A DNA stretch of 64,000 bases from an uncultured Thermomicrobiales bacterium (GTDB taxonomy: Bacteria > Chloroflexota > Chloroflexia > Thermomicrobiales > CFX8): NCBI GenBank assembly GCA_964577155.1, contig CAZNYB010000003.1, positions 13,815 to 77,814 of the forward strand. The letters are read 5' to 3'. Shown here piece by piece: positions 14,545 through 52,071 of this stretch. Under the pieces are notes generated by a model. It was not told the origin of the DNA, did not search any database, and worked only from the letters and a program-made list of their open reading frames with translations. A program made the translations under genes and the position numbers. Positions within the stretch are counted from its first letter, which is position 1. Each line of letters starts with the position of its first letter.

Positions 14545-14558
14545 TGACGAATCTGTCA
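14545..14558. promoter_or_regulatory. palindromic operator-like site A: TGAC-GAATCT-GTCA
   Basis: Read directly (attcTGACGAATCTGTCAgttg). Lies in the 240-bp divergent gap between the GT-C gene and gmhB, about 70 nt upstream of gmhB. Member of the recurrent motif described in the findings. Confidence 0.55.
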
Positions 14559-14625
14559 GTTGTTTGCACCGGCCCTCTGTCCGAGTCACCCATTAAGAGG
14601 ATGCATATTCTGAACTATCGGGTTC

Positions 14626-15333
14626 ATGAACCATGACCAGATAACCAATGATGGCAGAGGCAAGGTGGCAACTCCGGCGGTATTTCTCGATCGCGACGGT
14701 GTCCTCAATCGTAATCGCAACGATCACGTGAAGGCCTGGGATGAATTTCATTTCATTCCCGGGGCGCTTTCTGCGATGCGGCTACTCGCCACAATTGGCA
14801 TGCCGATCGTGGTGGTGACAAATCAGGCAATCATCAATCAAGGGAAGGTGCCTCGCAGCACCGTCGAATTCATTCATGCCAGAATGACCAGCCGGATACA
14901 GCGTACTGGCGGTCGAGTCGACCGCATTCTGTATTGTCCCCATACCTCTGAGGAACATTGCGGCTGTCGCAAACCGCAACCGGGACTGCTCATGTTGGCT
15001 GCCCATGAACTGAACATTGATCTGGCGCGATCAGTGTTTGTCGGGGATGCCTTGACCGATATCGAAGCAGGCCAACGAGCCGGTTGCCGAACAGTCCTCG
15101 TTCGCTCCGGACGTGGGAATGATGCTCTGTCCAAGCTATCGCAATCAGTCGTTCGCTGGCCCGACACGGTTGCCACGGACCTCTTGTCAGCTTTACCAGC
15201 AATACGTGATCTATTGGGATTAGTCGGGAGCAGCGATGGCGCTCCCGATATGCAGCAGCAGGAACGAAGACATGAAGAATTCACGGGACACCAGTATGCG
15301 GCGCATCTCTCTGACGCGGCGTTCGATTCTTAG
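14626..15333 (+). CDS. gmhB: D-glycero-D-manno-heptose 1,7-bisphosphate (or alpha-1-phosphate pathway) phosphatase, HAD-IIIA
   Basis: VFLDRDGVLN, VVVTNQ, CPHxxxxxCGCRKPQPGLL (zinc-binding loop) and FVGDALTDIEAG motifs. Confidence 0.8.
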   Translation: MNHDQITNDGRGKVATPAVFLDRDGVLNRNRNDHVKAWDEFHFIPGALSAMRLLATIGMPIVVVTNQAIINQGKVPRSTVEFIHARMTSRIQRTGGRVDRILYCPHTSEEHCGCRKPQPGLLMLAAHELNIDLARSVFVGDALTDIEAGQRAGCRTVLVRSGRGNDALSKLSQSVVRWPDTVATDLLSALPAIRDLLGLVGSSDGAPDMQQQERRHEEFTGHQYAAHLSDAAFDS

Positions 15334-18300
15334 AGCCGGACTCGGCGGCACAGTCGCTTTTGCATTTTCAAACCATAATGTAAAACTGCGGCGGCGCTTC
15401 CTCTCGGCAAATGCCGCAACGCCGCCCGTTCAGACGGCTGCAACTCTGGCCGGCGACGAAGCTAGCCGCGAATTGGCGATCCAAGGGAACGGCTCGATCG
15501 CTATCGTCACCGATTCTTCAACTTCGACTTTCGGCGGCTATTTGGCAGAGATTCTGAGCGCGGAAGGGGTACGTGACTACAGTATTTTCCCACTGAGCTC
15601 GCTGAATTCAGTGATTCAAAATAGTCCGCGTGCCATCATTCTTGCGCCTTCGAGTCCTACATCAGCAAACATTACAACATTGCAAAATTACGTCTCATCA
15701 GGTGGCGGACTCGTCGTGTTGCGCCCCGATTCAGGGTTGAACAATCTGCTGGGTATCACGTCTGAGTCAGGGAGTATCAGCCAGGGTTATCTGCGTATCA
15801 CCGACACCCAGGTCGCTGGCGGCCTCTATAGCCAGACGATCCAATTTCACGGAACATCCAATAAATATAGCCTGAACGGTGCACAACAGATCGCCGAACT
15901 CTACACGTCCCGTACCAGCACCACCGGGTTGCCCGCGGCGACACTGTCAAACTTCGGATCGGGCCGCGCGGCGATGATGAGTTTTGATCTCGCGCAGAGC
16001 GTCGCCGAGATCCGCCAGGGCAATCCAGCTCAAGCAAACCAGGACACCGATGGGGACGGTATCGTCCGGTCTATTGATATCTATCGAAACTGGACCGACC
16101 TGGAACGGTCCAATGTTCCTCAAGCCGACATTCAACAGCGTCTGTTGGTGCGGCTGATCGATGCGGTATCTGGTTATCCTACGCCTCGCCTCTGGTACTT
16201 CCCCGGCAACTCCCGTAGCGTCTTTGTGCCAACTGGCGATGCCCACGGGAATCCGCAGTCCTATTTTCAGGCACTGATCGACGCCTTCAGTCAGCGCGGC
16301 ATCGGCATGACTTTCTTCGTTCCGACAACTTCCCCCCCACCATCAGCGGTTAGCCAGTGGATTAGCCAGGGTTTTGATTTCAGTATTCACCCCTATGTTG
16401 ATCAGGGTTATGGCTCCGGTTTTAGCGACAATCTGTCCGACTTCGTCAATGACTACGGCTTCAGCCCCGCGACGGCACGCACTCACCAGGTGCGCTGGAC
16501 CGGTTGGTCCACTGCGGCCGAAATCGAATCCCAATTTGGGATCGAGATGGACTTCAACTCCTATCAATGGAGCACATGGCTCTCAAATTCATCCGGTCAA
16601 GCCCGCGGTTATCTCAGCGGTAGTGGAATTCCGATGCGATTCGCCGCATCGGACGGAGATACCCTGTCGATCTTTCAACAGCACACGAACCTCGTCGACG
16701 AAGAACTCGCTCCAGAAGTAGGCGTGGCGGATCTCACGCTCACCGAAGCACTCTCCATCAGCCATCAAACGATTGACGATTGTATCGATCAGTTCCATAC
16801 CGCCATCGTCACGCAGTTTCACGTCGACTACTTCAATTTCGGCGATGTAAATTCATGGGTGCTCGGCACGACCGATTACGCTCTCCAGCGCGGAGCGACG
16901 CCGCTGACGGCAGCAGAATGGCTCGCATTCGTCAAGAGCCGCGCAGCGACGAATATCAGCGACGTAACCTGGGCTGCTAATGCCCTGTTGTTCACGGTTT
17001 CAGGCGGCGGATCAAACCGAACGGTACTCGTCCCACTCAGTCAACTCGGTTCCGCCTTGACCAGCGTTACGCGCAACGGCAGCAATGCAAGCTATAGCGT
17101 ATTGACGGTCGATGGCCGCTCGATGGCGGCCATTTCCGCAACCAACGGCAACTACAAGGCCACCTATGAGGCAGACACGACTGCCCCCGTCATCTCGAAC
17201 ATTGTGGTGACGTCGACAGCCAACACAGCTACCGTCACCTGGACGACGGACGAAGCGGCAACAAGCATCGTCGACTACGGTCTGACACCGTCGCTCGGCT
17301 CACAAGCCAGCGTCGCGGGTCTAGCGACCAGCCATAGCGTCACCCTTACCGGGCTCACACCGGCCACAACCTACTCCTACCAAGTCACGTCCGCGGATGC
17401 GTCGAACAACACCAGTTCGTCGGAGATTCAGTCATTCACGACAACACCGGCCGGCGCGCCAACACTGAGTGGCATTGCGCCTTCATCGGGGCAGAGCGGT
17501 ACAAGCCACAATGTGACCATTAGCGGCACGAACTTCGTCAATGGCATCTCAGCTTCACTCGGGACAACCGCGCTCCAGAATGTCGCTTTAACCAACTCCA
17601 CAACGATTCAGGCGGTCGTGCCGGCATCGCTGCCTGTCGGCCAGCATAACCTGGAGGTCACGAACCCGGACACCCAGAGCGCAACACTCGCAAACGCTTA
17701 TACGTCGACCGCGCCGCCGCCAGATCTGGTGAGCGTGGCGCCGCCAGTGGCGACCGCCGGTCAGCAGGTCACCCTCTCAGGCGCCGGATTCATCACCGGT
17801 GCAACGGTGCGCTTCAATTCGACCGCCGCGATGCAGACAACGGTGACATCATCGAGCTCGGCAACGGCGCAGATCCCGACATCGCTGGCTGGCGGGACTT
17901 ACTCAGTCACCCTGACCAACCCAGACCAGCAATCCGACACGCTAACCAACGCCCTGACCATCTCTGCCCTGCCGACTATCGGGCACACGACAGTGGCCGA
18001 CTTCACACCTGGCGTCTTCACAAACACCGCCGTCATAAGCGGTGGTCAGGCGGGTGACGGCGCGGTTGTTCTCGCGTCGAATGGGTGGCTCGATAACTTC
18101 GATCAGCCGAACCTGGATCCGAACCTCTGGACGAGCAATACCTGGCAGACGGGCGGCTCAATCGCCATCTCCACTGGGAATCTCAACGTCAATGGAGCAT
18201 GGATTCGAAGCGCTACGACGGTCGGCATCGGACGGGTGAATATGCGGGCAACGTTCACCGGGGCACCCTGGCTGAATATTGGCCTGAGCCGGACGGACGA

Positions 18301-21300
18301 TCTGGACAACCCGTGGTTCCTCTTCGGGGTGCCTGGCTGGGATACTTCTCAGGTCTATGTGCGATACAACTTCAGCGGTGGTTTCGCCAATATCCCCTTG
18401 CCAGATCTGCTCGGCGCGCCACACACGTATTCAATCGTCAAGGAATCCGGTCTTGTGCGATTCCTGGTCGACGATCAGGAGGTGCACCAAGTTGCGACCG
18501 GTGCGCTCGGCGGGCTAGCCACCTGGGTCAGTTCCGGCGCCATCGGCTCGCCGCTCAGCGTGGATTCTGTCGAGATTGTCACCTACCAGCCACAAGGCTC
18601 CTACCTGAGCCCAGCACTCGACGCCGGGCAGTCCGCGAACTGGCAGCAGCTCATCATTAGTGCGCCGTCAGTGCCATCCACCAGCTTCGTTGTGCGCGTT
18701 CGCTCGTCCACGTTCGGCTCCAACTGGTCAGCCTGGTCAACGGATATGAGCAGCTTCCCAGCCCAGTTGGCGTTGCCGGTCGGGCGCTACTTGCAGTACC
18801 AGATCGATCTCCAGAGCACGGACGGCACGACAACACCTATTATCGAAGCGGTCAGCGCTTCGTATCAGACCCAGTCAGGTCCGGTCGTTAGCAGCGTGGT
18901 CGTTTCGCCGGCATCGGTCAACCTCGAGCGCGACGAAACGCAACAGTTCATCGCCGAGGTCTCGGATACAGACGGCAATCCGCTGCCCGATGCACCCGTT
19001 ACCTGGAGCGTCACCAACGGCGGTGGCACGATCAATGCCAGCGGTCTCTTCACGGCCGGCGCCACTGGCGGAACGTTCACCAACACCGTCGTCGCTTCAA
19101 GCAACGGCATAACCGGATCGGCGTCCGTGACAGTGACTGTGCCTCCGGCTCCGCAGATCACCGACGTTTCGCCGCCCGCAGCTCTGGCTGGCGACACGGT
19201 CACCGTATCGGGTCAGAATTTCATCAGCGGTGCACAGGTTCATGTCGGATCGACACAGACCGACGACGTCAACGTCAGCAGCGCGACAACGCTGACCTTC
19301 ACCGTCCCAACTATCGCCAACGACACCTATTCGGTCACGGTGACGAATCCGGACGGACAGTTCGGCTCACTACAGAACGCACTCACGATCTCATCCCTCA
19401 ACTGGCTCAACCACACGTCGCTAAGCGACTTCCAAGCGGGCACTCACGCCAGCACGGCAGCCATTCAGGGTGGAGTAGCTGGTGATGGCGCGGTAATCCT
19501 CGCGAATCAAGGAAGTATCGATGATTTCAACGACGCATCATTGAATGGATCACTTTGGACCTCTGGTCTGTGGGATCCGAGCGGTTCGCTGACCATCTCC
19601 GGTGGAGCCTTGACGGCGCGGGGTGGTTGGGTGCGAAGCACGGCCTCCCTGACAAGCGGCGCTGCTTCTGGTCGGCTGACCTTCTCGAACACGGGTTGGC
19701 AGAACTTCGGCCTGAGCCGGACGGATGACCTGGACGCGCCGTGGTTCCTCTTCGGAGTACCGGGCTGGGATACTTCCCAGGTCTATGTGCGCTTCAACTA
19801 CAACGGCGGCTTGGGAAACGTTCCCATTCCGGGATTGATCGGCGAACCGCACGACTATGCGATCCAGGTCGGTGGCGGGATAGTCAGCTTCCTGGTCGAC
19901 GACCAGCAAGTTCATCAAGTCAACGTGCCGGCTCTCCCGACTATGGCAGTCTGGCTGAGCGTTGGTTCAACGATCGAGCCGGGAACGGTTGCAGATTCGC
20001 TCGGATCGGTGATCTACCCGGAGTCAGGCGCCTTCACGGGCCAGACCTTTGATGCCGGCCAGTATGCCAACTGGCAGGAACTCATCGTCGACGCTACGAC
20101 TATGCAGGGCACGACGCTTTCGTTCCGAGCACGCACATCGACCAACAGCACGACATGGTCAACTTGGTCGACCTCTACTAGCACGTCGCCTGCCCATTTA
20201 GCGCTGCCAGGTGGCCGGTATCTGCAGTACGAATTGAATCTTGCCACCACCAAGGGCTCGGCCACTCCGCTTATCCAGGTTGTCAGCGGCGGCTATACAC
20301 CGTCGACGCCGCCTGGTCCGGCGAGTATGACCATCACCCCGACAAACGCGACCTTGATACCTGGCGACACCCAACAATTCAGCGCTCAGGTGTTCGACAT
20401 TTCTGGCAACCTGATCACCGACGCGCCACTGAGCTGGAGCGTTGAGGCAGGTGGCGGAGAGATAACCTCCGGCGGGATGTTCACGGCAGGTTCGACGCTT
20501 GGTAACTACGCCGACACGGTGGTCGCGACGAGCAACAGCCTAAACGCGCGCGCCACGGTGAACGTCATCGCGCCACCCTCACCGCACATATCGAATGTAA
20601 ATCCGAGTTCAGCTGTCGTCGGCGCAAGTGTCACCATCACCGGCGACAACTTCGCCAGCGGTGCAACTGTGGCGCTCGATTCGATTCCGGTCAGCGACGC
20701 GACGGTCGTCAACGCGACAACGATCACGTTCACCGTTCCGCAGGTTCCGGCGGGAATGTACAGCGTCGTTGTAACGAATCCAAGAGAGCAGTCCGATATC
20801 CTCTCCGATGGTTTGACAGTATCAACACCTTCAGTTCCAGTTACGGTCTCACAGTCGACCGGTTCGGAGTTCGGTCAGGGTTCGCTGGTGAATACCGAGG
20901 TCACGACATTCGGCGATGGCGAAGTTCGTCTAACGGCAAGCTTCCTGGACGAGTTCAACGGTTCGGCGCTGGGTTCCGCGTGGAACTCCGGCAGCTATGG
21001 CAGCGGTGGTTCGGCAAGCGTCAACAACGGTCAGGCAGCCGTCACGAATGGGTGGATCCAGAGCACCGCTAGCTTCGGAGAGACGACGGCCACCGCACGC
21101 CTCACGTACAACAACAACGGTACGCCATATCTCAACTTCGGCTTCGGCTCAGCCGGTTCACTCGATTACCCGTGGTTCCTCTTTGGTATTCCGGGCTTTG
21201 ACACCAACCGCATCTACGCGCGCACGAACGTTCCGGGTGACTTCTATCTGGATCAGGTGATAAACGGCGTAACGCTGAATCAGCCCCATGAGTACTCGAT

Positions 21301-21754: not shown

Positions 21755-21762
21755 GAGCCTTT

Positions 21763-28520: not shown

Positions 28521-29433
28521 ACTGAGTGTGGTGATTGTCTCCTACAATACCTGCGATCTGCTTGCACGTTGTCTATCCGAGTTGCGCATCGCAGCGCAAC
28601 ATCTCGTGCTCGAGATTATCGTGGTTGACAATGGTTCGACGGATGGTACGCGTGAATTCCTCGCAGGCCAACTCGATATTCAGTCGATCCTGAATGATTG
28701 CAATTCGGGTTTCGCAGTGGCCAACAACCAGGGTTTCAAGCTTGCTGAAGCGCCAATCATTCTGTTGCTCAATAGCGACGCCTTCGTGACGAGCCAAACA
28801 CTGCGCCGAGCGATGAGGGCAATGCAATACAACCCGTTCGTCGGCCTGGTAGGTGTGAAAATCCTCAACGCCGACGGTTCGATTCAGGCCGAGAATGGCT
28901 CGTTTCCGACACTCTGGCACGATATTCGGGCTTCGATCGGTCTGAATCAATTCGAGCGCGGTCAGAAGCATGCGCCGACGGTCTCCGGCCCTGTCGATTG
29001 GGTACATGGCGCTTGCATGTTCGCTCGAAAAGAGGCGATTGAAGCCGTCGGCGGACTAGACGAACGATACTTCATGTACAGTGAAGAAATCGATTGGTGT
29101 CACCGCTTCTGGGACGCTAATTGGCAAGTCTGGTATGTGCCCGAAGCCTCGGCGGTTCATGTTGGCGGAAGTTCGTCACGCTCGAACGACCTGAGCCGTC
29201 GAGTCGCATTGTACGAGAGCAGGCTTGGGCTTCGACGCCATCTGACTGGCCCACACTCTAGCCTGTTGCTCTGGCTAGCGATGCTTTCCGGACTCACCGG
29301 CAGGGTGATAACTCGCCCGTTGCTGCAGGCCGTTACCCGTCGTGAATTCGGCAATCAGAGTGCGACCGCCGACTGGCAGCTGGTGCGCGCCATCGCCCGG
29401 ATGGATCCACTGGCCCGAAAACTGGCTTCCTGA
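28513..29433 (+). CDS. GT2 glycosyltransferase (rhamnosyl/galactosyl-transferase-like GT-A)
   Basis: LSVVIVSYNTCDLLARCL, VVDNGSTDGT and LNSDAF motifs. The ATG at 28513 overlaps the upstream stop (ATGGCTGA). Confidence 0.8.
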   Translation: MAELSVVIVSYNTCDLLARCLSELRIAAQHLVLEIIVVDNGSTDGTREFLAGQLDIQSILNDCNSGFAVANNQGFKLAEAPIILLLNSDAFVTSQTLRRAMRAMQYNPFVGLVGVKILNADGSIQAENGSFPTLWHDIRASIGLNQFERGQKHAPTVSGPVDWVHGACMFARKEAIEAVGGLDERYFMYSEEIDWCHRFWDANWQVWYVPEASAVHVGGSSSRSNDLSRRVALYESRLGLRRHLTGPHSSLLLWLAMLSGLTGRVITRPLLQAVTRREFGNQSATADWQLVRAIARMDPLARKLAS

Positions 29434-29519
29434 ACAACCTGTCACTTATCAAAGACACCCATCCGGCACGCTCAGCAGCCTGGACGTTGCAGGCTTATGC
29501 TGATTGTGAAAGGCACGCT

Positions 29520-34630: not shown

Positions 34631-34644
34631 TGACGGATTTGTCA
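34631..34644. promoter_or_regulatory. palindromic operator-like site B: TGAC-GGATTT-GTCA
   Basis: Read directly (catacaTGACGGATTTGTCAtttc). About 100 nt upstream of the Wzz/BY-kinase-like gene, in a 435-bp gap. Confidence 0.55.
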
Positions 34645-34743
34645 TTTCGGCATCTACGCACCCAACTATGTGAGTGAGATTGGGACCGCATACTTCATGT
34701 GGGCATGCGGGCAGCGCTTTCGAAGCGGTGAGGGCTCTTGTGT

Positions 34744-38111: not shown

Positions 38112-38855
38112 GTGGCTCTTCAGGATCCGGTGGCGGTTGCTTCAGGCAATATCGTGATCGTCGATGATGATGTGGTGACGACCAAAGTGCTGCGCTTCCT
38201 GCTCGAGGAGGAAGGCTACTCTACCTACGTCATCCATCGCGGCAGTCAGGTCGTCCAGGCTGTCACCAACCAGGAAACCGACCTCGTCCTCCTCGACATC
38301 AATCTGCCCGACATCGATGGCTTCACCCTCACCAAACTCCTGCGCGCTCACCGCTACTTCGGTCCCATCATCCTCCTCACCGGCCGGAGTTCTCTGGCCG
38401 ATAAACTCAGCGGCTTCGAACATGGCGCCGACGATTATCTTCCTAAACCTTACGAACCGCTCGAACTCCTCGCCCGCATCGAAGCCGTCCTCCGTCGAGC
38501 CAAACATGCCGACCAGCAACCTCTCGGTTCTGTCCTCCGCGTCGATGATGCCGAACTCTCGCTGGGTGAACTCACCTACCGGAGCAATGCCGTCGCAGAC
38601 GCCCTGCTCACTCCCACCGAAATGCGGCTGCTCGAAGTGCTGATGCGCAACAGCTGGATCGTCATTGGACGCGACACCTTGATCGAACGTGTCTGGGGGT
38701 ATGACTTTGAAGGCGACACCAATCGTGTCGATGTCTACATTCGCCGGGTCCGTCGCAAGATCGAAGCCGATCCCCAACAACCCCGCTATCTCCACACCGT
38801 CCGTGGCGTCGGCTACGTCTTTCGTGTCGAATCAGCTACGGTCAACACCGAATAG
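38112..38855 (+). CDS. OmpR/PhoB-family response regulator, copy 1 (canonical receiver plus winged helix)
   Basis: Receiver residues are present: IVDDD, DLVLLDINLPDIDG, LLTGRS, GADDYLPKP. Trans_reg_C domain (LTPTEMRLLEVL, VDVYIRRVRRKIE, TVRGVGYVF). GTG start with GAAGGGAA upstream. Confidence 0.85.
   Translation: MALQDPVAVASGNIVIVDDDVVTTKVLRFLLEEEGYSTYVIHRGSQVVQAVTNQETDLVLLDINLPDIDGFTLTKLLRAHRYFGPIILLTGRSSLADKLSGFEHGADDYLPKPYEPLELLARIEAVLRRAKHADQQPLGSVLRVDDAELSLGELTYRSNAVADALLTPTEMRLLEVLMRNSWIVIGRDTLIERVWGYDFEGDTNRVDVYIRRVRRKIEADPQQPRYLHTVRGVGYVFRVESATVNTE
38155..38837 (+). repeat. 683-bp perfect direct repeat, copy 1 (internal to the response regulator CDS)
   Basis: Compared line by line with 40935..41617 at an offset of 2780 nt. 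No mismatch seen between these bounds, and the flanks are unrelated. Confidence 0.9.
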
Positions 38856-39024: not shown

Positions 39025-39687
39025 ATGGCGCCGAACATCTCCGACTACCTCAAGGATATCCAGTGTGCTCTGGAGCTAGTCAATGCTGATGATATTGAAG
39101 CGATCGTTTCGAGACTGTTTCGAGCCTACGCCGAGAGCCGGACCGTGTTCACCTGTGGGAATGGAGCGAGTGCTGCGCTTGCTTCACACATGGCTTGTGA
39201 CCTCGGCAAGGGAACCGCACCGGATCTTGGTAGAGGTCCGGACAAACTGTCGGCGAGACGGCTACGCATTCATAGTTTGAACGATAACGCCGCACTGCTA
39301 ACTGCTTATAGCAACGACCTTGCTTACGAAGATGTCTTTGTAGAGCAGTTAAAGAATTTCCTCAGCCCGAATGACGTCCTCATCGGTATCAGCGGAAGTG
39401 GTGGATCACCGAACGTTCTGAGAGCAATGGCCTATGCGCGCAAGGCTGGTGCAACCACGATAGGGCTCACCGGCTCGCAATCTAGCGCGTTCAAGATCAT
39501 TGAACTCTCCGACCTCCGATTGCAAGTGGCCCCGGAATTGATGGAGCAGATTGAGGATCTGCACGTAATTGTTCACCACATTATCGGGCTGAGATTGCGT
39601 GCAAGAATTGCCGACTACGCACCTGTCGATTTAGCCGAGCCTGTGATGACCAACATCGAGCGCCCATATATCAATCCTTGGGACTAA
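39025..39687 (+). CDS. gmhA: SIS-domain sedoheptulose-7-phosphate isomerase (phosphoheptose isomerase)
   Basis: FTCGNGASAALASHMACDLGK and LIGISGSGGSPNVLRAMAYARKAGATTIGLTG motifs. The ATG at 39025 has GGAGAG 7 nt upstream. Confidence 0.75.
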   Translation: MAPNISDYLKDIQCALELVNADDIEAIVSRLFRAYAESRTVFTCGNGASAALASHMACDLGKGTAPDLGRGPDKLSARRLRIHSLNDNAALLTAYSNDLAYEDVFVEQLKNFLSPNDVLIGISGSGGSPNVLRAMAYARKAGATTIGLTGSQSSAFKIIELSDLRLQVAPELMEQIEDLHVIVHHIIGLRLRARIADYAPVDLAEPVMTNIERPYINPWD

Positions 39688-40502
39688 GGATCACCCGTCA
39701 AAGATACGTTATCTCCACGATCGGCCGGACGGGTTTGAGGTTTTCCAGCGTTGGGCATTTGGACGGACATCTCTTCGCGTGAGAGCTTGTAATCTGACGA
39801 TCGCCGGAACCGGGCAACGTATCCACGATTCTGGACTGTTATGACCGAGATCGCCACGAATCCGCTGGTTTCGAGTTTTCGGCGTATATGGCTAATGATC
39901 CTGGGCACTGTCGAGGGCTGAACTCGGCCTCTATCCATGTCTTTCGCTATGGTGTCAGTAGATACCGGTAGGCCATCATGTTCGAGTAGGACGCTCAAGA
40001 CTTCCCATTCGAGTGGAGAGAGCTGTACCTTAAGGGGTCCGGCTACGATTGTATGGCTCTCAGAATCAAACTTGATGCCACTACTTTCGCGCCGTTCGGT
40101 GAACGGCCAGATCCGGGTAACGAGAGCGCGCATCCTCGCAACAAGTTCGGCAGGTTCGTAAGGGCTGACCAGATAATCATCGGCGCCGGAACGCAGAACA
40201 TCGGCTATGACCTGAGGATTCCGGTCAGCGCAAATAACCAGAATCTTCGCCCGACTTACAGCTCTGGCTCCAACAACGATTTCCAATCCTCTCCGAGCAT
40301 CCTGTGTCAAACTGAAAATGATCAAATCCAGCTGCTCATCGGGAACCTCCGCCAGTTGAAACGGATCAACAGGTCGAGTCTCCCAACCTAGTTCCTCGAC
40401 CAACGATACAATTTCACTGGTTTCGAACGGTTCCTCCGAATAAATTCCAACGTATATTGGACCTTGGTCGGCACGCTCGCTAGCCTGGATGTCAGCTTCC
40501 AT
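39684..40502 (-). CDS. atypical OmpR-family regulator with a pseudo-receiver domain
   Basis: The winged-helix output domain is intact (LSPLEWEVLSVLL, IISHIRRKLE, VQNRGYVARF). The receiver lacks the phospho-chemistry residues: DLIIFSL instead of DxxxxD, VSPYEP instead of TKPF, YSEEP instead of DD. Confidence 0.75.
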   Translation of the reverse strand: MEADIQASERADQGPIYVGIYSEEPFETSEIVSLVEELGWETRPVDPFQLAEVPDEQLDLIIFSLTQDARRGLEIVVGARAVSRAKILVICADRNPQVIADVLRSGADDYLVSPYEPAELVARMRALVTRIWPFTERRESSGIKFDSESHTIVAGPLKVQLSPLEWEVLSVLLEHDGLPVSTDTIAKDMDRGRVQPSTVPRIISHIRRKLETSGFVAISVITVQNRGYVARFRRSSDYKLSREEMSVQMPNAGKPQTRPADRGDNVSLTGDP

Positions 40503-40785: not shown

Positions 40786-40912
40786 CCAATTGCGAGTCAA
40801 ATCAGCAGCTATTCTGATTATGTTGTTCAGAATTCTAAACAGCTGGATGTCTTGCGATCCAGTAACCGATGTCTGGATACAACTGACATAGTTGCGACAA
40901 ACATGGAAATGA

Positions 40913-41638
40913 GTGACAATGTCTTCCAATGTCATGATCGTCGATGATGATGTGGTGACGACCAAAGTGCTGCGCTTCCTGCTCGAGGAGGAAGGCTACT
41001 CTACCTACGTCATCCATCGCGGCAGTCAGGTCGTCCAGGCTGTCACCAACCAGGAAACCGACCTCGTCCTCCTCGACATCAATCTGCCCGACATCGATGG
41101 CTTCACCCTCACCAAACTCCTGCGCGCTCACCGCTACTTCGGTCCCATCATCCTCCTCACCGGCCGGAGTTCTCTGGCCGATAAACTCAGCGGCTTCGAA
41201 CATGGCGCCGACGATTATCTTCCTAAACCTTACGAACCGCTCGAACTCCTCGCCCGCATCGAAGCCGTCCTCCGTCGAGCCAAACATGCCGACCAGCAAC
41301 CTCTCGGTTCTGTCCTCCGCGTCGATGATGCCGAACTCTCGCTGGGTGAACTCACCTACCGGAGCAATGCCGTCGCAGACGCCCTGCTCACTCCCACCGA
41401 AATGCGGCTGCTCGAAGTGCTGATGCGCAACAGCTGGATCGTCATTGGACGCGACACCTTGATCGAACGTGTCTGGGGGTATGACTTTGAAGGCGACACC
41501 AATCGTGTCGATGTCTACATTCGCCGGGTCCGTCGCAAGATCGAAGCCGATCCCCAACAACCCCGCTATCTCCACACCGTCCGTGGCGTCGGCTACGTCT
41601 TTCGTGTCGAATCAGCTGTTGACAATCTGGATGCTTAA
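40913..41638 (+). CDS. OmpR/PhoB-family response regulator, copy 2
   Basis: Identical to copy 1 from IVDDDVVTTKV to VFRVESA. The N-terminus (MTMSSNVM) and C-terminus (VDNLDA) are unique. Start is GTG 40913 or ATG 40919. Confidence 0.85.
   Translation: MTMSSNVMIVDDDVVTTKVLRFLLEEEGYSTYVIHRGSQVVQAVTNQETDLVLLDINLPDIDGFTLTKLLRAHRYFGPIILLTGRSSLADKLSGFEHGADDYLPKPYEPLELLARIEAVLRRAKHADQQPLGSVLRVDDAELSLGELTYRSNAVADALLTPTEMRLLEVLMRNSWIVIGRDTLIERVWGYDFEGDTNRVDVYIRRVRRKIEADPQQPRYLHTVRGVGYVFRVESAVDNLDA
40935..41617 (+). repeat. 683-bp perfect direct repeat, copy 2
   Basis: See copy 1 (38155..38837). Confidence 0.9.
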
Positions 41639-41896: not shown

Positions 41897-42676
41897 ATGA
41901 CAACGCAACGCAATCGTTCAACGCACGATGCCTCCGACAAGGATTCAGTGCGCAACGAGCAGCCTGAACAGCAGCCAGCGCCTGTCGACAGGCGGTTGAT
42001 TGCCGCGATGGCCGGTCATGAATTGCGAGAACCTATCAATGCCATTATCAGCTTCCTCAATGTTACGGTCCAGGAACGTCTCGGTCCATTGAATGCACTG
42101 CAGTCGGAGTTCCTGCGTAGCACGGAATCAGCCGCAAGAAGACTCGAACGGCGCATTGATGACGTGCAAGTCGCGCTGCTGGAAGGCGACGCGCTGAAAC
42201 TTCATAGAGCATGGATCGATCCCAATAGACGAGTCGTCGCGACATGCCGGGAGCTCGAATGGGCGGCAGAGAAGTACGAGACAAAAGTGCTCATGAACCT
42301 TGAACGGTCGACAAGAAATCCGGGGACATGGGCAGATGCCGATCGCCTCGCTCAAATACTATCCAACGTAATTGAGAACGCAATTCGGTACGCTCCAGCG
42401 GGAACTGAAGTGCGCGTTTCAACGTCTTTTCGAGAACATGGTTACTGGACATTCATTGTGGAGAATGACCTGGAGCAAGATCAACAGTTTAGTACTGCCA
42501 ACTGGTTTCTGCCTGGCGATCGCTCAACACGAGCAAACGATCGGCAACGGCCTGGGCTAGGTTTAGGGCTGACTATTGCGAAGTACCTGGTCGAGGCACA
42601 TCAAGGAGAGATCTGGGCAGATATCGTCGACAGTAAAGTACAGGTAGGATTCTCGATCCCTCACCACAAAAGGTAG
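41897..42676 (+). CDS. small cytoplasmic histidine kinase (DHp plus HATPase_c only, no sensor or TM region)
   Basis: H-box AAMAGHELREPINAI, N-box LSNVIENAIRYAP and G2 box RPGLGLGLTIAKYLVEAHQGEIWAD. The expected G1 box DxGxG reads ENDLEQ. Confidence 0.75.
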   Translation: MTTQRNRSTHDASDKDSVRNEQPEQQPAPVDRRLIAAMAGHELREPINAIISFLNVTVQERLGPLNALQSEFLRSTESAARRLERRIDDVQVALLEGDALKLHRAWIDPNRRVVATCRELEWAAEKYETKVLMNLERSTRNPGTWADADRLAQILSNVIENAIRYAPAGTEVRVSTSFREHGYWTFIVENDLEQDQQFSTANWFLPGDRSTRANDRQRPGLGLGLTIAKYLVEAHQGEIWADIVDSKVQVGFSIPHHKR

Positions 42677-43159: not shown

Positions 43160-43173
43160 TGAAGATACTGTCA
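43160..43173. promoter_or_regulatory. operator-like site H with one arm mismatch: TGAA-GATACT-GTCA
   Basis: Read directly (aaCTGAAGATACTGTCAGTTc). About 100 nt upstream of hddA. Shares the 9-mer CTGTCAGTT with site A. Confidence 0.4.
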
Positions 43174-43270
43174 GTTCATTAGAGAAGGCACTGCGACTAG
43201 TTGTGCCTGAATACTGCCGTATTGTAAACGGTGTGAAATAGTAGATGTCAAGCTGATCTCGGAGGACCAC

Positions 43271-44314: not shown

Positions 44315-44642
44315 CTCGTCAAAAACCCCGATCCCATCTCATTAGCCTTGCAAGAACGGTCCCGTCCGGGGCTTCAATGTAATCACTGAGCCTATTGAGC
44401 CGCATCAGAGTGGCTCTGCCGAGCAGCGCCGTCAACCTACTCATTCAAGGGCGGAGATTGCTCTATGCTGGTCAGGACAGGAATTGCAGGTGTACGTATA
44501 TTGCTGTGACGAACTGGTCAAGTGGCAAACCGTATGGTATCTTGCGCAGAGGCGGAACGAGTTTCGGATGAGGGTTCGTAACTTACTTTCCGTAAAACTG
44601 GGACTATTCGCCCAGTGCGAAGGAATTCCGCCGGAGTTGATA

Positions 44643-44662
44643 ATCTGACAAATGTGTCAGAT
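44643..44662. promoter_or_regulatory. operator-like site D: extended palindrome ATCTGACA-AATG-TGTCAGAT (core TGAC-AAATGT-GTCA at 44646-44659)
   Basis: Perfect 8-4-8 inverted repeat read directly. Lies in the 806-bp gap between hddA and the secreted protein gene. Confidence 0.55.
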
Positions 44663-45120
44663 GGAATGTTCGTTTGGCGCTCGTACGGTGGGGACTGGGG
44701 CGAGCCAATCGGATCATCGACACATGTTGGAAACTCAGCTAGATGCAGATCTAGTAAACAGACGATATTTGACATTACTGAGAGGATGGAATTGCGTCGA
44801 TCGGTGACTGCTCTGGCAGCGGCTGCACTCTGTCATGAAGTAAAAGAAGGTGCCGCGCTGGAACGGTAGATTAAAATACCGTTGTAATCGGCATCGAGTG
44901 TCAGCAGTCGGCCAAACACCAACCGATCATCATAAATCCCCGGGGAAGATGTGACGGACCTTCGCTGAGGCTACCCCACCTTTAATTCAGTGCGCTCATA
45001 CCGCCGGACCTTGTTGTGCTGGCGTGCATTAGGAATGTGGGTCTATTCGGACCTGAGGTTACCTCGTGCGTTGCCACCGGTTGGTTTTGCGTGCACTCAA
45101 AATCAAGAGGGGCATACTCA

Positions 45121-46641
45121 ATGAACGCGTGTTTAAAGCGACCGTCTTCACGGCGGCTAGGATTTCTTTTCTTCGCTGGCCTGGCAGCTATTATTGTTAT
45201 GGCAACTTCCCCCCAGGACGCCTCGACCTCCATACGGGCAGGTGACAACTTCGGGTCAACCATGATCGTCAGCGACATCAGCCTCACGATATCTGGAGAT
45301 TCTCAGATTCAGGTGATGGTGGAAGTGCGATCTGCCGACACTGCCGTTCGCAGGGCAATTGTGAAGGGCAAACTCACGGTTCCATCCTCCGACCAATCGA
45401 TTTGGATACGAGGTCGAACAGCATCCAACGGTCAATTCGTGAAGAAGCTGTCGCAATCGGGTCCTGGCGCCTATGTTTTCGAAGTCACCGAAGTCAAAGC
45501 ACGAGGTTTGACGTTTGACCGGGATTCGAGCCCCAGTTTGGAAGCCACGCTCACAATAGATGATTCGGGCATACCTGCTGCGACGGCGACGAATGTTCCC
45601 AGTCAGCCGCCTGCGACGGCGACCGCGACAACTGTTGTGCCAACCGCAACGAGCGTTGTGCCAACGGCGACCAATGTGCCACCGACCACCACCTCGGGCA
45701 ACTACTGCTCTGAAGCCATCCACAACCAGTACGTCGCCACCGGCCCCGACGGCAACCTCTATCCCACCTGGCATCCTCCTGTCGATCCTGCCACCGGCTG
45801 CGTCTTCGACCACGAACACGGCGACAATCCCAACGGCAACCCCGCCTTGCAAGGTCGCAATGTCGTCTTCTGCTATATGGCTACCTTCACAAATAACTGT
45901 ATGCCTCACAACGGCTACAAAGTCTTCGCCTGGTCTAACATCTCTCATTACAACGCACCAGCTCACTCCGGCGCTTCCGTCGTCATGGTCCTCCACCAGG
46001 GCACCAGTGGCGCGGGCCGCTTCACCACCGTCTTCCATGACATCGAAATTCACTACTACAATCCCAACGACGGTCGCGAAGCTCACATCTACATGCTCGC
46101 ACCCTTTGGCGAACTCCTCGTTGGCTGTGGCGCAAACGATCCCAACATGGATCTGCGTCTCAGTCAAGCCAATGCTCCCGGCGCCCGTCAAATATCGGCC
46201 AGCAAGTGTTTCGATCCACCTAATATCCCCTACGAGGACTGGATCACTGCTCTCTACATCGGAACCGACAGTCAGGGCAACTGGAAAGGGTATATGGATC
46301 CGCACTTCGCCATCTTCAATCCCAACACCTACTGCATCGTGCAGGACAACAGTTGTGTGCTCGGTTACTCCGATGAGCGTGCCGGTACCGGAGCCGATCC
46401 AAACAGTGCCGACTCCTGGTTCAAAGGCGTCAAACGCGAGGCCTATCTCAACCAGGTCTGGATCAGAAACGCTGGCGGTTCCACCACCATCTGGACCGAT
46501 CCCTACGGCAAACTCGTCCCGGCTGGACAGGGCATCCCGCAATACCTCTCAACCGTCAACCAACAACCGTTGACCAACTCCGCCGCCTTCGGGGCCGACC
46601 ACGACAACGATCCCGCTGGCGCTGTCCACGCTCCTAACTAG
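45121..46641 (+). CDS. secreted protein of unknown function: signal peptide, beta-rich N-domain, Pro/Thr/Ala linker, Cys/His-rich C-terminal domain
   Basis: ORF 45016..46641, start moved to the ATG at 45121 (MNACLKRPSSRRLGFLFFAGLAAIIVMA) with AGAGGGG upstream. Linker ATATNVPSQPPATATATTVVPTATSVVPTATNVPPTTT is encoded by short imperfect tandem repeats near 45577-45700. The C-domain contains YPTWHPPVDPATGCVFDHEHGDNP. Confidence 0.7.
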   Translation: MNACLKRPSSRRLGFLFFAGLAAIIVMATSPQDASTSIRAGDNFGSTMIVSDISLTISGDSQIQVMVEVRSADTAVRRAIVKGKLTVPSSDQSIWIRGRTASNGQFVKKLSQSGPGAYVFEVTEVKARGLTFDRDSSPSLEATLTIDDSGIPAATATNVPSQPPATATATTVVPTATSVVPTATNVPPTTTSGNYCSEAIHNQYVATGPDGNLYPTWHPPVDPATGCVFDHEHGDNPNGNPALQGRNVVFCYMATFTNNCMPHNGYKVFAWSNISHYNAPAHSGASVVMVLHQGTSGAGRFTTVFHDIEIHYYNPNDGREAHIYMLAPFGELLVGCGANDPNMDLRLSQANAPGARQISASKCFDPPNIPYEDWITALYIGTDSQGNWKGYMDPHFAIFNPNTYCIVQDNSCVLGYSDERAGTGADPNSADSWFKGVKREAYLNQVWIRNAGGSTTIWTDPYGKLVPAGQGIPQYLSTVNQQPLTNSAAFGADHDNDPAGAVHAPN

Positions 46642-46666
46642 GGAGACATCGTCGGACATACATGGA

Positions 46667-46685: not shown

Positions 46686-46694
46686 CCCATGTTT

Positions 46695-47560: not shown

Positions 47561-47574
47561 TGAATCATCTGTCA
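47561..47574. promoter_or_regulatory. operator-like site F with one arm mismatch: TGAA-TCATCT-GTCA
   Basis: Read directly (ttatcTGAATCATCTGTCAccaa). About 90 nt upstream of the GT2 start at 47664, in a divergent gap. Confidence 0.35.
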
Positions 47575-47663
47575 CCAACACTTCTGCGGCTCGTCCGGGC
47601 CAGATAGGCCAATCCTGGGATGCTGGTATGCGACGGGGTCTGATGTATGGAGGCGTTCCTCAT

Positions 47664-48572: not shown

Positions 48573-48577
48573 ACGCA

Positions 48578-49765
48578 ATGACAACGAAGAGACTTCGCAT
48601 AGGAATCGACGCGCGCTATCTCTCGCATGGCCTGGTTGGCGGGGTGCACACCTACGTCCGCAACCTTGCGAACGCCCTGATCGAGTCGGATGCGCCCATT
48701 GACTATGATCTCTGGATCGATGACAAGTGTCCATATGATGCCGGAGCACTGCCCGTTGGATCGCAAACGCGGATTCTCTCCTGGAGGAGCCCGCTCAGCA
48801 GTCTTCGCCACGATTGGCGGCTGGGGATGCTCATGCGCCGAGCCGGAGCTGATGTAGTGCACTTTCCGGCAAACTATGGCAATATGCCGCCCGGTGTTCC
48901 CACTGTTCTGACGCTCCACGACGCGATCAACATTCTGCCTTACCTGGAGATCGTACGGGGTCATGAGAAACGGCCCCGCGCGCTGCTCACCATGAGCTAT
49001 CTTCACCTTATGACGCGTTGGGCCGTCCAGCAGCAACCACTTGTCATTACCGTCAGCCAGCACGCACGCCGGGAGATTTTGCGGCACTCGGACCTAAAGC
49101 CTGAGCGCGTGCAGGTGGTCTATTCGGCGGCGGACGCGATCTTCCGGAAGCTGGCCTGGGGAGAACGTGTCGCAGAGCAGGAGCGCCTCCAGCTGCGAGA
49201 ACGCGTTCTTCTAGCCGATGCGATCAAGAATCCCCAGACAACGCTCCAGTCCTATCGACGCCTGCCCAATGACCTGCGTGCGAAGACAAGTCTGATATTC
49301 TTTTCGCGACGTGAGCCAGGCGCAGACGTAACCGCAGCCGCCAGAAACGGGGAATGCATAGTCATCCGACGACCCTCTACCGGCTACCTGGTGAAGCTGT
49401 ACAATCTTGCCGATATCTTTGTGTTTCCGTCCTATATCGAAGGTTTTGGACTGCCGGTGCTAGAAGCAATGAGCTGCGGCACCCCCGTCGTGGCGTCCGG
49501 AGCTGGATCGCTTCCGGAAATCGTCGATGGCGGCGGCTGTATCATCCCCGACCCCGACGATCATGCACACTTCACGAAGGTGCTAACTGATCTTCTGTCC
49601 AATTCAGAAAGACGAGCACACTTATCCGAGCTGGCCCTGGAGCGATCGGCGGCATTCTCCTGGCGACACACCGCGGCCGAAACGCAAGCAGCTTATATTC
49701 GCGCAATCGAATCATCGCGCAAAACCAGGGCTCGTGCCAGCAAACACTCAACCGCACCCGTCTAA
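48578..49765 (+). CDS. glycosyltransferase family 4 (GT-B fold)
   Basis: MTTKRLRIGIDARYL N-terminus and IFVFPSYIEGFGLPVLEAMSCGTPVVASGAGSLPEIV core. Confidence 0.8.
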   Translation: MTTKRLRIGIDARYLSHGLVGGVHTYVRNLANALIESDAPIDYDLWIDDKCPYDAGALPVGSQTRILSWRSPLSSLRHDWRLGMLMRRAGADVVHFPANYGNMPPGVPTVLTLHDAINILPYLEIVRGHEKRPRALLTMSYLHLMTRWAVQQQPLVITVSQHARREILRHSDLKPERVQVVYSAADAIFRKLAWGERVAEQERLQLRERVLLADAIKNPQTTLQSYRRLPNDLRAKTSLIFFSRREPGADVTAAARNGECIVIRRPSTGYLVKLYNLADIFVFPSYIEGFGLPVLEAMSCGTPVVASGAGSLPEIVDGGGCIIPDPDDHAHFTKVLTDLLSNSERRAHLSELALERSAAFSWRHTAAETQAAYIRAIESSRKTRARASKHSTAPV

Positions 49766-51960
49766 CGAGAAGCGGCTGGAATGGCGACGTAGTACAGCGC
49801 CTGATCGTCAAAGAGCCCGTCGTCATTCAGATCTTCGTCGAAGAAAACCAGGTCAATATAGTCTTCCGCTGGCGTTGAGAATGCTCCCGCCCAGCGGAAA
49901 ACAGCAGACCCATCGGCCTCGATTTTGATCAACTGCTGCCAGGCGCTCCAACCGGACGCGTTGCCATACATAACATTCATACCTTCCGGTGGATGGAATT
50001 CGTCGTGCCCCGAAACAATGAAGGTTCCGTCAGCGTATATGCCCAACCCGGGGGCGTGCGTAAAGTAGTCACCGCCTACCGGTATATCCTCCCAGACGTC
50101 GCTGCGTAGGGATCGCAGTCTCAAGAATGACCCGGAATCAACATAGAGAATGTAGGGGACGCCGCCCGGTGTTATGAGACAGGAGGGTCCCTGGTCGATA
50201 CTTTCCGGACCAAGAACATCATCAGCGACGATGTCAGGAGCCGACCAGCCTTGACCGCTGTCGCGCGTTGCGATAATCAGGTTCAGGGTTGCGTCATAGC
50301 CAGCCAGATACCAGGTTCCATCAGGCCCAAGCGCCAGGACAGGATGCCAGACGAATGATCCTTCCTGTCGCAAAGGTTCGCCAGGCGCGGACCAGTGATT
50401 TTCAGAACGTTCACGCACTCGGATCTGAGTATGATTTCCGATGACAACGTAAGCGATGCGGATATTGCCTTGCAGATCAAGAGCAATGCTCGCACCCCCC
50501 TGCCCCGCTTCTCCACCGAAACCGTCGAGGCCGGTATCGTCGACGCGTTCGGCGTCGGTAGCCCATGACGACGTCGCGAGATCGAAACTCCTGTAATAGA
50601 TTGGAACACCCGGTTGACCCCGATCTACCCAGATGACATGCAACCGCTGGTTGCTGTCAAGCGCGGCGTCTGCCATGACGATTTCACCACCGCCTGACGC
50701 ACTCTCGATGATCCCGGACTCGACAAGGTCGAATGCCACCGGAACTCCCGGCGTCGTGGCGCGATACATGACCAGCCGGCCAGGACCACTGCCAGTGCGT
50801 GGGCGGTTATTGTCGAGCGCCACAATCCAAAGACGATCATCGGCGTCCCTCACGACAGATCTCATCCAGGCGTCGACTGCGCCATCTCCAACAGTTACGA
50901 GCTCGATTTGCGAAGGAGTGTGCGGTACATCGGTGACAGTAGGCTCCGGCGGTGGTGTCGCTGAAGGGATTGCGGTCGGTTCAGGAATTGTCGTCGTTGG
51001 AGTCGGAGCCGGTGACTCTGCCGTGCCGTAGAGCCACTCATAGTAGTGGAGACCGACATTGCCTGATTCCACCTTCCAGCCGGCCGGGTTACTCGGCGTA
51101 TAGGTCAGCACTCGCCGCTCAAATGCCTGGAATAGGATGAATTGATCCACCCCGCCAAGCCGCGCGTTAACCCAGTATGCCTCGGTTAGCGGGTAACCGG
51201 TTGCAAAAAAGGGAGAACTGAACAAATGCTCATCTTGAAGTTCCCCATCGACGAGCACTGGCCCGGTCGCATTCATAAACTCCCAAAAGACGCTGGCTAC
51301 ATGATGATCGATACCAGGCACCGTCACTCGATACGCGGCGTAAACACCCTGTTCCGCGAGAGATGAGTCTTCCACGACCTTCCCCGCCTGTGACACCAGT
51401 GCGATGATTGCGCCCCCATCGCTTCCTGCAGGGAGGGCGATGAGGTTACTTAGCGCGGCGTAGGTGGGGACACCGGCGCTACTGCGATCGCCAGCAACAG
51501 GAATCGAGGCAGCATCCCGCGCTTCGAACTCATTGTCTCCAATCTGTCTCCTTCCAGTCATTAGCTCAACGACCAGCAGACCATTTGTGACATACCAGGA
51601 GCTCTCAGGATCGTTATCCGGATGAGTCAACTCCATCCGGCTCTTGTCGAAGTAGCGCACCTCTCGCCGACCTTCCGACGCGTCAGCGTAAGGCTCCACC
51701 AGTTCGATCGCGCTTGCCTGTGGCCCCCAGATCCAGGTGCGGCTCACCGCGCCGTTCGCAACCGGCCTATCGGTTCGCTCCCAGATTGCGTCGAACGGCT
51801 GGACCGTGGCAACAGCCTGCGCGGCTACGGACTGCGGGGATTGTTCTCTTGTACACGATGATCCCATGAGAGTCGCACAGACGAGACATATTTGAACGAT
51901 TGACGCTAGCCGAATATGTCCGGTCCGACAACTCCGGTCTGGTTCAGTCAAACACTTCAT
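49762..51960 (-). CDS. secreted (possibly lipo-)protein: N-terminal domain, Pro/Thr linker, C-terminal propeller-like repeat domain
   Basis: Signal-like ASIVQICLVCATLMGSSC, linker APTPTTTIPEPTAIPSATPPPEPTVTDVPHTPS, and repeated strand-rich blades ending in W-S-x-P-type motifs (HWSAPGEPL, GWSAPDIV, GWSAWQQL). Confidence 0.6.
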   Translation of the reverse strand: MKCLTEPDRSCRTGHIRLASIVQICLVCATLMGSSCTREQSPQSVAAQAVATVQPFDAIWERTDRPVANGAVSRTWIWGPQASAIELVEPYADASEGRREVRYFDKSRMELTHPDNDPESSWYVTNGLLVVELMTGRRQIGDNEFEARDAASIPVAGDRSSAGVPTYAALSNLIALPAGSDGGAIIALVSQAGKVVEDSSLAEQGVYAAYRVTVPGIDHHVASVFWEFMNATGPVLVDGELQDEHLFSSPFFATGYPLTEAYWVNARLGGVDQFILFQAFERRVLTYTPSNPAGWKVESGNVGLHYYEWLYGTAESPAPTPTTTIPEPTAIPSATPPPEPTVTDVPHTPSQIELVTVGDGAVDAWMRSVVRDADDRLWIVALDNNRPRTGSGPGRLVMYRATTPGVPVAFDLVESGIIESASGGGEIVMADAALDSNQRLHVIWVDRGQPGVPIYYRSFDLATSSWATDAERVDDTGLDGFGGEAGQGGASIALDLQGNIRIAYVVIGNHTQIRVRERSENHWSAPGEPLRQEGSFVWHPVLALGPDGTWYLAGYDATLNLIIATRDSGQGWSAPDIVADDVLGPESIDQGPSCLITPGGVPYILYVDSGSFLRLRSLRSDVWEDIPVGGDYFTHAPGLGIYADGTFIVSGHDEFHPPEGMNVMYGNASGWSAWQQLIKIEADGSAVFRWAGAFSTPAEDYIDLVFFDEDLNDDGLFDDQALYYVAIPAASR

Positions 51961-52057
51961 CTCCAGATGCTCCTATCGGCTCTGGCGCAAATCTGAGTCC
52001 GAACTAAGGTATATCCGACTCATTCGCCATCCCGGGGAGCACGGTTCAGCCAACGGC

Positions 52058-52071
52058 TGACGGTATTGTCA
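52058..52071. promoter_or_regulatory. operator-like site E: TGAC-GGTATT-GTCA
   Basis: Read directly (acggcTGACGGTATTGTCAgtac). Lies in the 200-bp divergent gap between 49762..51960 (-) and the acetyltransferase gene (+). Confidence 0.5.

Follow-up and report, generated by a model that had tools for sequence, protein, structure and literature searches.

The DNA analysed here is a 64,000-nt stretch (the window) of contig CAZNYB010000003.1 (positions 13,815 to 77,814, forward strand) from an uncultured Thermomicrobiales bacterium of the Chloroflexota (GenBank assembly GCA_964577155.1). Between 0.7 and 54 kb, the window is occupied by one very large glycan cluster, which encodes epimerases, a Bac_transf initiating transferase, many glycosyltransferases (GT) of the GT1, GT2 and GT4 families, a GT-C (PMT_2) enzyme and BNR proteins, as well as Wzx, a Wzy_C-domain protein, a Wzz/BY-kinase-like protein, a B12-radical SAM enzyme, a hexapeptide transferase and a DegT aminotransferase. 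The heptose genes gmhB (14626), gmhA (39010) and hddA (43271) lie in the same region, and the stretch at 38-43 kb forms a regulatory island within the cluster, with two copies of an OmpR/PhoB-family response regulator (RR1 and RR2), a histidine kinase and an atypical OmpR-type regulator. An earlier note on this DNA had described a recurrent palindrome, TGAC-N6-GTCA, in the non-coding gaps of the locus and proposed that it marks a dedicated regulon. This palindrome is the subject of the present analysis.

Within the window (56.6% G+C), TGAC-N6-GTCA has 11 perfect matches, against 1.30 +/- 1.07 in dinucleotide-preserving shuffles, and none of 100 such shuffles reached that number. Based on a gene map curated from the list of open reading frames (ORFs) and Pfam/NCBIfam annotation, the non-coding remainder amounts to 5,810 nt (9% of the window) and holds eight of the 11 matches, where 0.10 (shuffles) to 0.19 (observed 4-mer frequencies) would be expected (Poisson p = 3e-13 to 4e-11; binomial p = 6e-7 for at least 8 of 11 within 9% of the sequence). 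When all 256 4-mer palindromic dyads with spacers of 0 to 12 were scanned, TGAC-N6-GTCA was the sole outlier (8 non-coding, 3 coding), the runner-up, CTGA-N8-TCAG, being the same sites read differently. Unrelated genomic loci (1.35 Mb) carry the motif once per 80 kb.

The six perfect and two one-mismatch sites listed in the earlier note were all verified, as were the spacer rule RRATNT for sites A, B, C1 and D and the flanks common to A and H (CTGTCAGTT) and to C1 and D (GTCAGAT), and its claim that perfect gap sites occur far above chance holds. Two more perfect gap sites had been overlooked (14487-14500 and 44507-44520, here A0 and D0). The motif had also been described as restricted to gaps, which is correct as regards its enrichment but not in the strict sense, given that three perfect matches (8116, 22193 and 23994) fall inside coding sequence. 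None of these three shows the -10 element or the promoter layout seen at sites in gaps; they look like chance occurrences. A weight matrix built from the eight originally listed sites and scanned over the window also recovered the perfect site at 14487 and weaker gap sites, likewise positioned in front of further operons, at 4530, 29431, 38896 and 7640. No sites occur at 54-64 kb, the part of the window that encodes unrelated metabolism and a STAND-LuxR protein.

To describe the promoter architecture, sites were oriented toward their own gene and stacked without gaps, which gave 22 oriented promoters from the window and its relatives. In 21 of these, a -10-like hexamer of the form nAnnnT, mostly TAnnnT (TAGGCT, TATGCT, TACGCT, TAGTGT, TAGATT, TATTCT, TATTGT), starts 45-47 nt past the end of the 14-bp core, while other offsets have 0-5 such hexamers each. 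The control frequency for a three-offset window in the non-coding DNA of the window is 0.164, which gives p = 6e-16 over the full set and 1e-7 when the ten distinct promoters of the window are taken separately; the offset was picked after inspection of the data, and both values stay significant after a 70-fold correction. The composite pattern, read in orientation (TGA-N7-GTCA, 44-46 nt, nAnnnT), has 13 matches in the window, all of them in the non-coding 9%, and its frequency in the unrelated loci is 0.95 per 64 kb. With few exceptions, the distance from site to start codon is 84-105 nt. The palindrome is centred about 52 bp 5' of the first -10 base, which would place it at about -63.5 from the transcription start with a leader of about 40 nt; the constant site-to-start-codon distance of about 97 nt would then result from the fixed site-to-(-10) spacing plus this leader.

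No consistent -35 element was found across the promoters, and a canonical sigma-70 promoter scan returned nothing near the sites and a total below shuffle expectation; the -10 is detected only when anchored on the operator. A class-I activator of a sigma-70-type promoter would call for a site centred at about -61.5 (+/- 1-2 bp), on the same helical face, with a recognisable -10 and a poor -35; observed here are the fixed spacing to a -10-like hexamer and the lack of a common -35, while the position of about -63.5 is a prediction. The promoter-proximal arm (yTGTCAg) is better kept than the distal arm, which is TGAC in 16 sites and TGAA or other in 6. Across the 22 sites the core is TGA(C16/A6)-R-N4-Y-GTCA, with five window sites reading exactly TGACR-N4-TGTCA, and the consensus read toward the gene is cTGAC-N5-yGTCAg.

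Conservation was followed in related loci (L-numbers), which were retrieved through the regulator proteins. At the hddA promoter, the site lies 97 nt from the start codon in the window, L092 and L096 and 101 nt in L086, and is perfect in the three relatives. At the GT/Bac_transf/epimerase operon, the distances are 95 nt in the window, where the site has one mismatch, 96 nt in L092 and 100 nt in L096, the last two carrying the identical perfect sequence TGACGCGATTGTCA. Sites precede the Wzz-like gene by 93 nt in the window, 88 nt in L088 and 84 nt in L096, with the -10 CATACT common to the window and L088, and the RR2 promoter has sites in the window, L081, L082, L086 and L096. In the alignment of the regulator gap (window, L081 and L082), ATGACA-N5-GTCAGAnnTATGACAG and the -10 TATTCT are invariant while spacers and flanks diverged, and these half-sites with their -10 form a classical phylogenetic footprint. 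Conservation at orthologous promoters, which the earlier note had named as a check, is therefore seen at the hddA, GT/Bac_transf, Wzz-like and RR2 promoters.

In the motif-bearing relatives, which are probably Chloroflexota and whose regulators are 54-79% identical to that of the window, 8 of 10 perfect matches are intergenic, and the regulator-kinase-hddA module accompanies the motif in every one of them. Six loci with a non-glycan context (L089, L090, L091, L095, L097 and L098; about 88 kb in total) have essentially no perfect matches. A metagenome scan yielded just three short orthologous contigs, informative for the regulator gap. Orthologues of the canonical regulator are numerous, and those with a name come from Chloroflexi and Thermomicrobiales metagenome-assembled genomes, which underlies the tentative placement in the Chloroflexota. 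A GTDB genome scan with the atypical-regulator alignment, in a collection that does not include this lineage, returned nothing but generic proteins of the OmpR family, with no more than 31% identity.

Table 1. Predicted operators and regulatory genes of the window (strand "." where no single orientation is assigned; all -10 elements are predictions).
Feature	Position	Strand	Predicted -10	Description
Weaker operator	4530..4543	-	TAGTGT, 4479-4484	One arm mismatch; TGAATTGATTGTCA in gene orientation; 95 nt 5' of the GT-Bac_transf-epimerase operon (start codon 4434); backed by perfect orthologous sites in L092 and L096
Operator A0	14487..14500	-	GATGCT, 14437-14442	Perfect; 101 nt 5' of the GT-C (PMT_2) operon start (14385)
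Operator A	14545..14558	+	CATATT, 14604-14609	Perfect; 67 nt 5' of gmhB
Candidate operator	29431..29444	+	CAGGCT, 45 nt downstream	TGAACAACCTGTCA; short gap before ORF 29487; no comparative support
Operator B	34631..34644	+	CATACT, 34689-34694	Perfect; 5' of the Wzz/BY-kinase-like gene (34738)
RR1	38112..38855	+		Response regulator, OmpR/PhoB family, RegX3-like; candidate binder
Atypical OmpR-type regulator	39684..40502	-		Degenerate receiver, Ser at the phospho-acceptor position; winged helix; alternative binder or modulator
Operator array C1 + C2	40752..40785	+	TATTCT, 40810-40815, 44 nt downstream of C1	Divergent gap between atypical regulator and RR2; -10 assigned to the RR2-kinase operon
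RR2	40913..41638	+		Response regulator, 98% identical to RR1; candidate binder; own promoter with C1/C2
Histidine kinase	41897..42676	+		259 aa; 30-aa polar N-terminus, then HisKA and HATPase only
Operator H	43160..43173	+	TATTGT, 43220-43225	TGAAGATACTGTCA; 5' of hddA
Orphan site D0	44507..44520	.		Perfect; gene-free gap of about 800 nt; no downstream gene, no Rfam match
Orphan site D	44646..44659	.	CAGTTT, - strand, canonical offset	Perfect; best weight-matrix score in the window; more than 350 nt without a gene on the + strand
Operator F	47561..47574	+	GATGCT, 47619-47624	TGAATCATCTGTCA; 53 nt 5' of the annotated GT2 start (47628)
Operator E	52058..52071	.	TAGATT, 52117-52122 (+); TACCTT, 52006-52011 (-)	Perfect; serves two divergent promoters: hexapeptide transferase gene (52161) on the + side, ORF 49762-51960 on the - side

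Altogether, these data support the interpretation of the sites as transcription-factor operators, acting in cis on co-regulated glycan/heptose transcription units, and a regulon, possibly a dedicated one as proposed in the earlier note, is supported by the fixed -10 spacing and by the retention of sites at orthologous promoters in four diverged lineages. Its claim that the targets cover the heptose pathway stands for gmhB and hddA; for gmhA there is one weak candidate site only (38896). A pattern without function, whether it arose by chance or from codon usage, or whether it is a piece of a dispersed repeat or miniature inverted-repeat transposable element, a restriction-modification target or a small RNA hairpin, is effectively refuted. 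The common codons GAC and GTC are contained in TGAC and GTCA, one-mismatch matches are about twice as frequent across the window as expected, and three perfect matches lie in coding sequence, all of which could be read as an artefact, but the enrichment is specific to non-coding DNA and the -10 spacing is fixed and conserved across lineages. Repeats or transposable elements were rejected, as the flanks of the sites are unrelated, with no extended similarity, and the sole repeat at 37-43.5 kb is the duplicated regulator coding sequence, next to two short two-copy matches (23-24 nt, 83%) of a kind that the tool flags as often due to chance. Restriction-modification targets and RNA hairpins are ruled out by position and spacing; in addition, a 4-bp stem is too weak for a hairpin, and an Rfam search of the whole window, including the D/D0 gap, gave no matches.

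With regard to the binding protein, the most likely reading, to which we assign a probability of roughly 0.6, is that a response regulator of the OmpR/PhoB family, encoded in the locus itself, uses the palindrome as its operator, and that the duplicated RegX3-like regulator is the binder. According to this model, the product of RR1/RR2, paired with the sensor-less kinase, would bind the 14-16 bp palindrome cTGAC-N6-GTCAg (equivalent to TGACr-N4-yGTCA) as a dimer, symmetrically arranged on two inverted half-sites one helical turn apart. From a position about 52 bp 5' of the -10-like hexamer, at promoters without a good -35, it could activate transcription in a class-I-like manner. This position (-63.5) and the poor -35 suggest activation, with repression as the alternative. 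At least ten transcription units would be controlled, among them the unit of gmhB and a giant surface protein, the GT-C operon, the operon of the initiating GT/Bac_transf/epimerase, the Wzz-like gene, hddA, the GT2 gene, the divergent pair at 52 kb and, as predicted autoregulation through C1/C2, the RR2-kinase operon itself.

Among solved structures, that of RegX3 (2oqr, E = 1.5e-47) belongs to the nearest homologue of the local regulator. The recognition helix of the canonical regulator, TNRVDVYIRRxRxKIE, is invariant across orthologues of 54-98% identity, and a symmetric OmpR-family dimer is the natural reading because several published operators of this family are inverted repeats. A direct-repeat reading of the site (CTGAC/CTGTC with 9-bp spacing) was considered and is less parsimonious than the perfect inverted symmetry. 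The earlier note had put forward four local proteins as possible binders, and a local binder is plausible; the STAND-LuxR protein (60252) was rejected, being without any link to the motif and absent from all related motif-bearing loci.

An alternative that we regard as unlikely holds that the binder is the atypical, phosphorylation-independent OmpR-type regulator, bound head-to-head, alone or together with the canonical one, in which case the two-component system would be a target of the regulon and not its master. The protein has a winged-helix domain next to its degenerate receiver, and its family, which is rare (13 homologues, all metagenomic), is always divergent from the RR2-kinase(-hddA) module, with a C1/C2-type array in the intervening gap, in the window, L081, L082, L086 and L096. 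A precedent would be HP1043 (HsrA) of Helicobacter pylori, likewise with a degenerate receiver, for which a head-to-head binding mode was proposed and modelled on a site readable as an inverted repeat (PMC8345958). HP1043, however, is an essential orphan regulator with the consensus TTTAAG-N5-TTTAAG, whereas the atypical protein here goes together with a complete two-component pair. Moreover, sites are retained at the hddA, GT and Wzz-like promoters of L092 and L088, where no atypical regulator occurs beside the regulator or in the retrieved flanks, and the recognition-helix region of the atypical protein differs by lineage (STVPRIISHIRRKL, STIPTIISRIRRKL, STVASVLSRLRRKL), whereas the motif does not. 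The canonical regulator is favoured because of these two observations, its own helix being as invariant as the motif. On the atypical regulator's side of C1/C2 there is, in addition, no -10 at the canonical offset. A 212-aa protein beside the regulator orthologues of L088 and L089 was examined as a possible hidden atypical regulator and rejected, as no similarity was found.

It is also improbable that the binder is encoded elsewhere in the genome, as a CRP/FNR-type dimer (5-N6-5, CTGAC-N6-GTCAG) or another global factor that has the local two-component system among its targets. The geometry of the site is the same as that of CRP-type sites and its position is class-I-like, the visible genome amounts to 64 kb, so that further sites could exist elsewhere, and composite matches are found before non-glycan genes of relatives (L089 7548, L088 12013 and L096 4888). 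Against this, the half-site differs from that of CRP/FNR (TGTGA-N6-TCACA), the scanned ORFs of the window include no cNMP-binding, CRP or FNR-type gene, and the non-glycan part of the window has no sites, as the non-glycan loci of the relatives have almost none. The core, furthermore, exactly matches published OmpR-family operators, and the motif goes together with the regulator-kinase-hddA module. In the relatives, composite matches before non-glycan genes comprise L096 5862 and 9664 in addition to those just mentioned, and among the genes that follow these matches are small ORFs, the atypical regulator and one for a GGDEF/PAS protein; somewhat more than the glycan genes may belong to the regulon.

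Several points weigh against the RegX3-like regulator as the binder, or against parts of the model. As the related loci were retrieved with the regulator proteins, the joint presence of regulator and motif follows in part from this design, and the regulator orthologues of the six loci with non-glycan context (73-87% identity) have no convincing site upstream of their own genes. RR1 has no site in its upstream region either, and no target gene is identifiable for D and D0. The local regulator scores below the cut-off of the CusR/CopR subfamily and of every named equivalog, so that the similarity of the operators lacks subfamily backing. Among structurally characterised members of the OmpR family, most recognise direct repeats (PMC6868441, PMC8345958). 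Finally, the transcription starts are inferred solely through the -10-like hexamer, and the distance from a weak TTG-like element to the -10 would be 15-16 nt, which is short.

The earlier note did not recognise the operator as that of a characterised regulator, and on this point it has to be corrected. The core, the inverted repeat TGACA-N4-TGTCA, has been published as the consensus for two regulators of the OmpR family, CusR and CopR (PMC12428095), and a near-identical palindrome is on record for GraR-type regulators. The likeness to the copper boxes of E. coli CusR and of P. aeruginosa and P. putida CopR extends beyond the identical core consensus. These boxes are bound by a response regulator of the OmpR/PhoB family, the class proposed for the local site, are located in divergent regulator/target gaps and belong to autoregulated systems, as predicted here, and their multiple half-sites with extended protection are comparable to the C1/C2 array. 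As in those systems, an OmpR/PhoB regulator and its kinase adjoin the targets, and a site is present at the RR2 promoter. However, the local regulator is no member of the heavy-metal CusR/CopR/CzcR model TIGR01387 (172.4 bits, cut-off 279.2), and it falls far below the cut-offs of the CusR and HprR equivalog models. Its targets are glycan/heptose biosynthesis genes and not copper/silver efflux or other metal-resistance genes, its kinase has no periplasmic sensor, unlike those of the CusR/CopR systems, and its host belongs to the Chloroflexota.

Other regulators of the family resemble the local system in part. RegX3 of the mycobacterial SenX3-RegX3 system was reported to bind GTGAAC half-sites in inverted orientation, 5-7 nt apart (PMC7525159), and its DNA-binding domains form a symmetric dimer (PMC6868441), so that the inverted geometry and the one-turn spacing are common to both; the local half-site is cTGACr instead of GTGAAC, RegX3 controls phosphate-starvation genes, and SenX3 has a membrane/PAS sensor where the local kinase has none. 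A GraR-type palindrome, AAGTGACA-N4-TGTCATTT, was noted 5' of vraFG, and BceR and VirR bind inverted repeats (PMC3128592), while the repeat bound by ArlR, also inverted and 20 bp long, precedes a polysaccharide operon (PMC6868441). GraR, BceR and VirR of Firmicutes and ArlR are OmpR-family proteins whose inverted repeats lie 5' of the -35 region of cell-envelope genes, a setting resembling the local one. The functional GraR core, though, was narrowed to ACAAA-TTTGT, unlike the local core, and the subfamily, the sensing partner (a BceAB-type transporter) and the phylum all differ. Nothing relevant was found in the literature on the regulation of heptose genes (hddA) by response regulators. We thus class the operator as one of a known kind, not as a CusR/CopR member, given that the regulator falls below the cut-offs, the targets are glycan genes and the half-site differs from that of RegX3.

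A more elaborate picture, which is speculative and in our view unlikely as a whole, would join the sensor-less kinase, the two-copy RegX3-like regulator and the phosphorylation-blind OmpR-type paralogue into a three-part switch. These parts would compete or cooperate on the alternating half-sites one helical turn apart in C1/C2, the rigid -63.5 palindrome could fire in both directions, and the switch would turn on and off the entire S-layer-type, heptose-containing cell-envelope glycosylation programme of this Chloroflexota lineage. D and D0 might then drive unannotated or antisense transcripts beside hddA. The C1/C2 array itself consists of four half-sites (TGAC/GTCA/TGAC/GTCA) in a 10-bp register, and C2 would be positioned near -43.5.

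Further features of the regulatory island are as follows. The RR1 and RR2 copies (compared at 38147-38446 and 40927-41226) share 98% protein and 99% DNA identity, the repeat being confined to the coding sequence. In L086 and L096, the two corresponding regulators are clearly divergent paralogues, and the near-identity seen here points to gene conversion or recent re-duplication in the lineage of the window. Because the kinase has no membrane or sensor domain and the neighbouring regulator carries Ser in place of Asp, the input signal of the system is obscure. In the gap between atypical regulator and RR2, the block TCTGAAyATACATACACCT at 40640-40660 is invariant in the window, L081 and L082. 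Read on the minus strand (AGGTGTATGTATrTTCAGA), it holds a -10-like TATGTT/TATATT element and probably serves the atypical regulator as its promoter; its distance from C1 is not the canonical one. A second palindrome, TTCTGA-N9-TCAGAA (40812-40832), occurs once in the window, with perfect arms, and is largely kept in L081 (one mismatch in the right arm). It overlaps the predicted RR2-kinase -10 and may act as a further operator or belong to a structure in the leader. It was rejected as the motif of a second regulon, being a single occurrence whose left arm is the RR2 -10. In L088 (9439-10000) and L089 (9413-10000), a gap of about 560 nt lies 5' of the regulator orthologues, in the context of the divergent 212-aa protein and the kinase. 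It has long conserved non-coding blocks (e.g., ccataccaaaagggctatg, TGACnatttactgtacgttc and gaccctataacctgccca) and no palindrome, and may hold an unannotated small gene or RNA.

Regarding individual sites and their neighbours, the predicted -10 of the site at 29431 falls on the annotated TTG start codon of ORF 29487, an LA_3751/3752-like putative glycosyltransferase whose true start is probably further downstream. The gap after hddA (44315-45120), in which D and D0 are located, has no convincing gene; on the minus strand, both sites have a -10-like hexamer at the canonical offset, and the transcripts would run toward the 3' end of hddA. Beyond this gap, a 541-aa ORF (45016-46641) without a family match is overlapped by a 428-aa ORF on the opposite strand, and its probable start is an internal Met near 45121, followed by the signal-peptide-like stretch MNACLKRPSSRRLGFLFFAGLAAIIVMA. 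Directly 3' of gmhB and in the same putatively operator-controlled unit, a 2,172-aa protein (15334-21754) with IPT/TIG, fn3 and Big_1 domains is encoded, which is plausible as a surface (S-layer-like) glycoprotein substrate of the cluster.

As a concept, control of a polysaccharide locus by a two-component regulon is nothing new, and the local system can be described, at the level of sequence, as a palindromic OmpR-family operator with a two-component regulon, that is, a CusR/CopR-type box without membership in that subfamily. To our knowledge, almost nothing is known about how envelope glycan synthesis is regulated in Chloroflexota and other uncultured Terrabacteria. For this organism, sequence analysis has provided an operator consensus, a promoter architecture (site, 45 nt, TAnnnT), a list of at least ten target units and a named candidate regulator, of which the consensus, the architecture and the target list can be tested without culturing it. 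For the OmpR family, the locus adds a case of a regulator that probably acts on a symmetric palindrome instead of direct repeats, outside the metal-resistance systems by which that consensus was defined.

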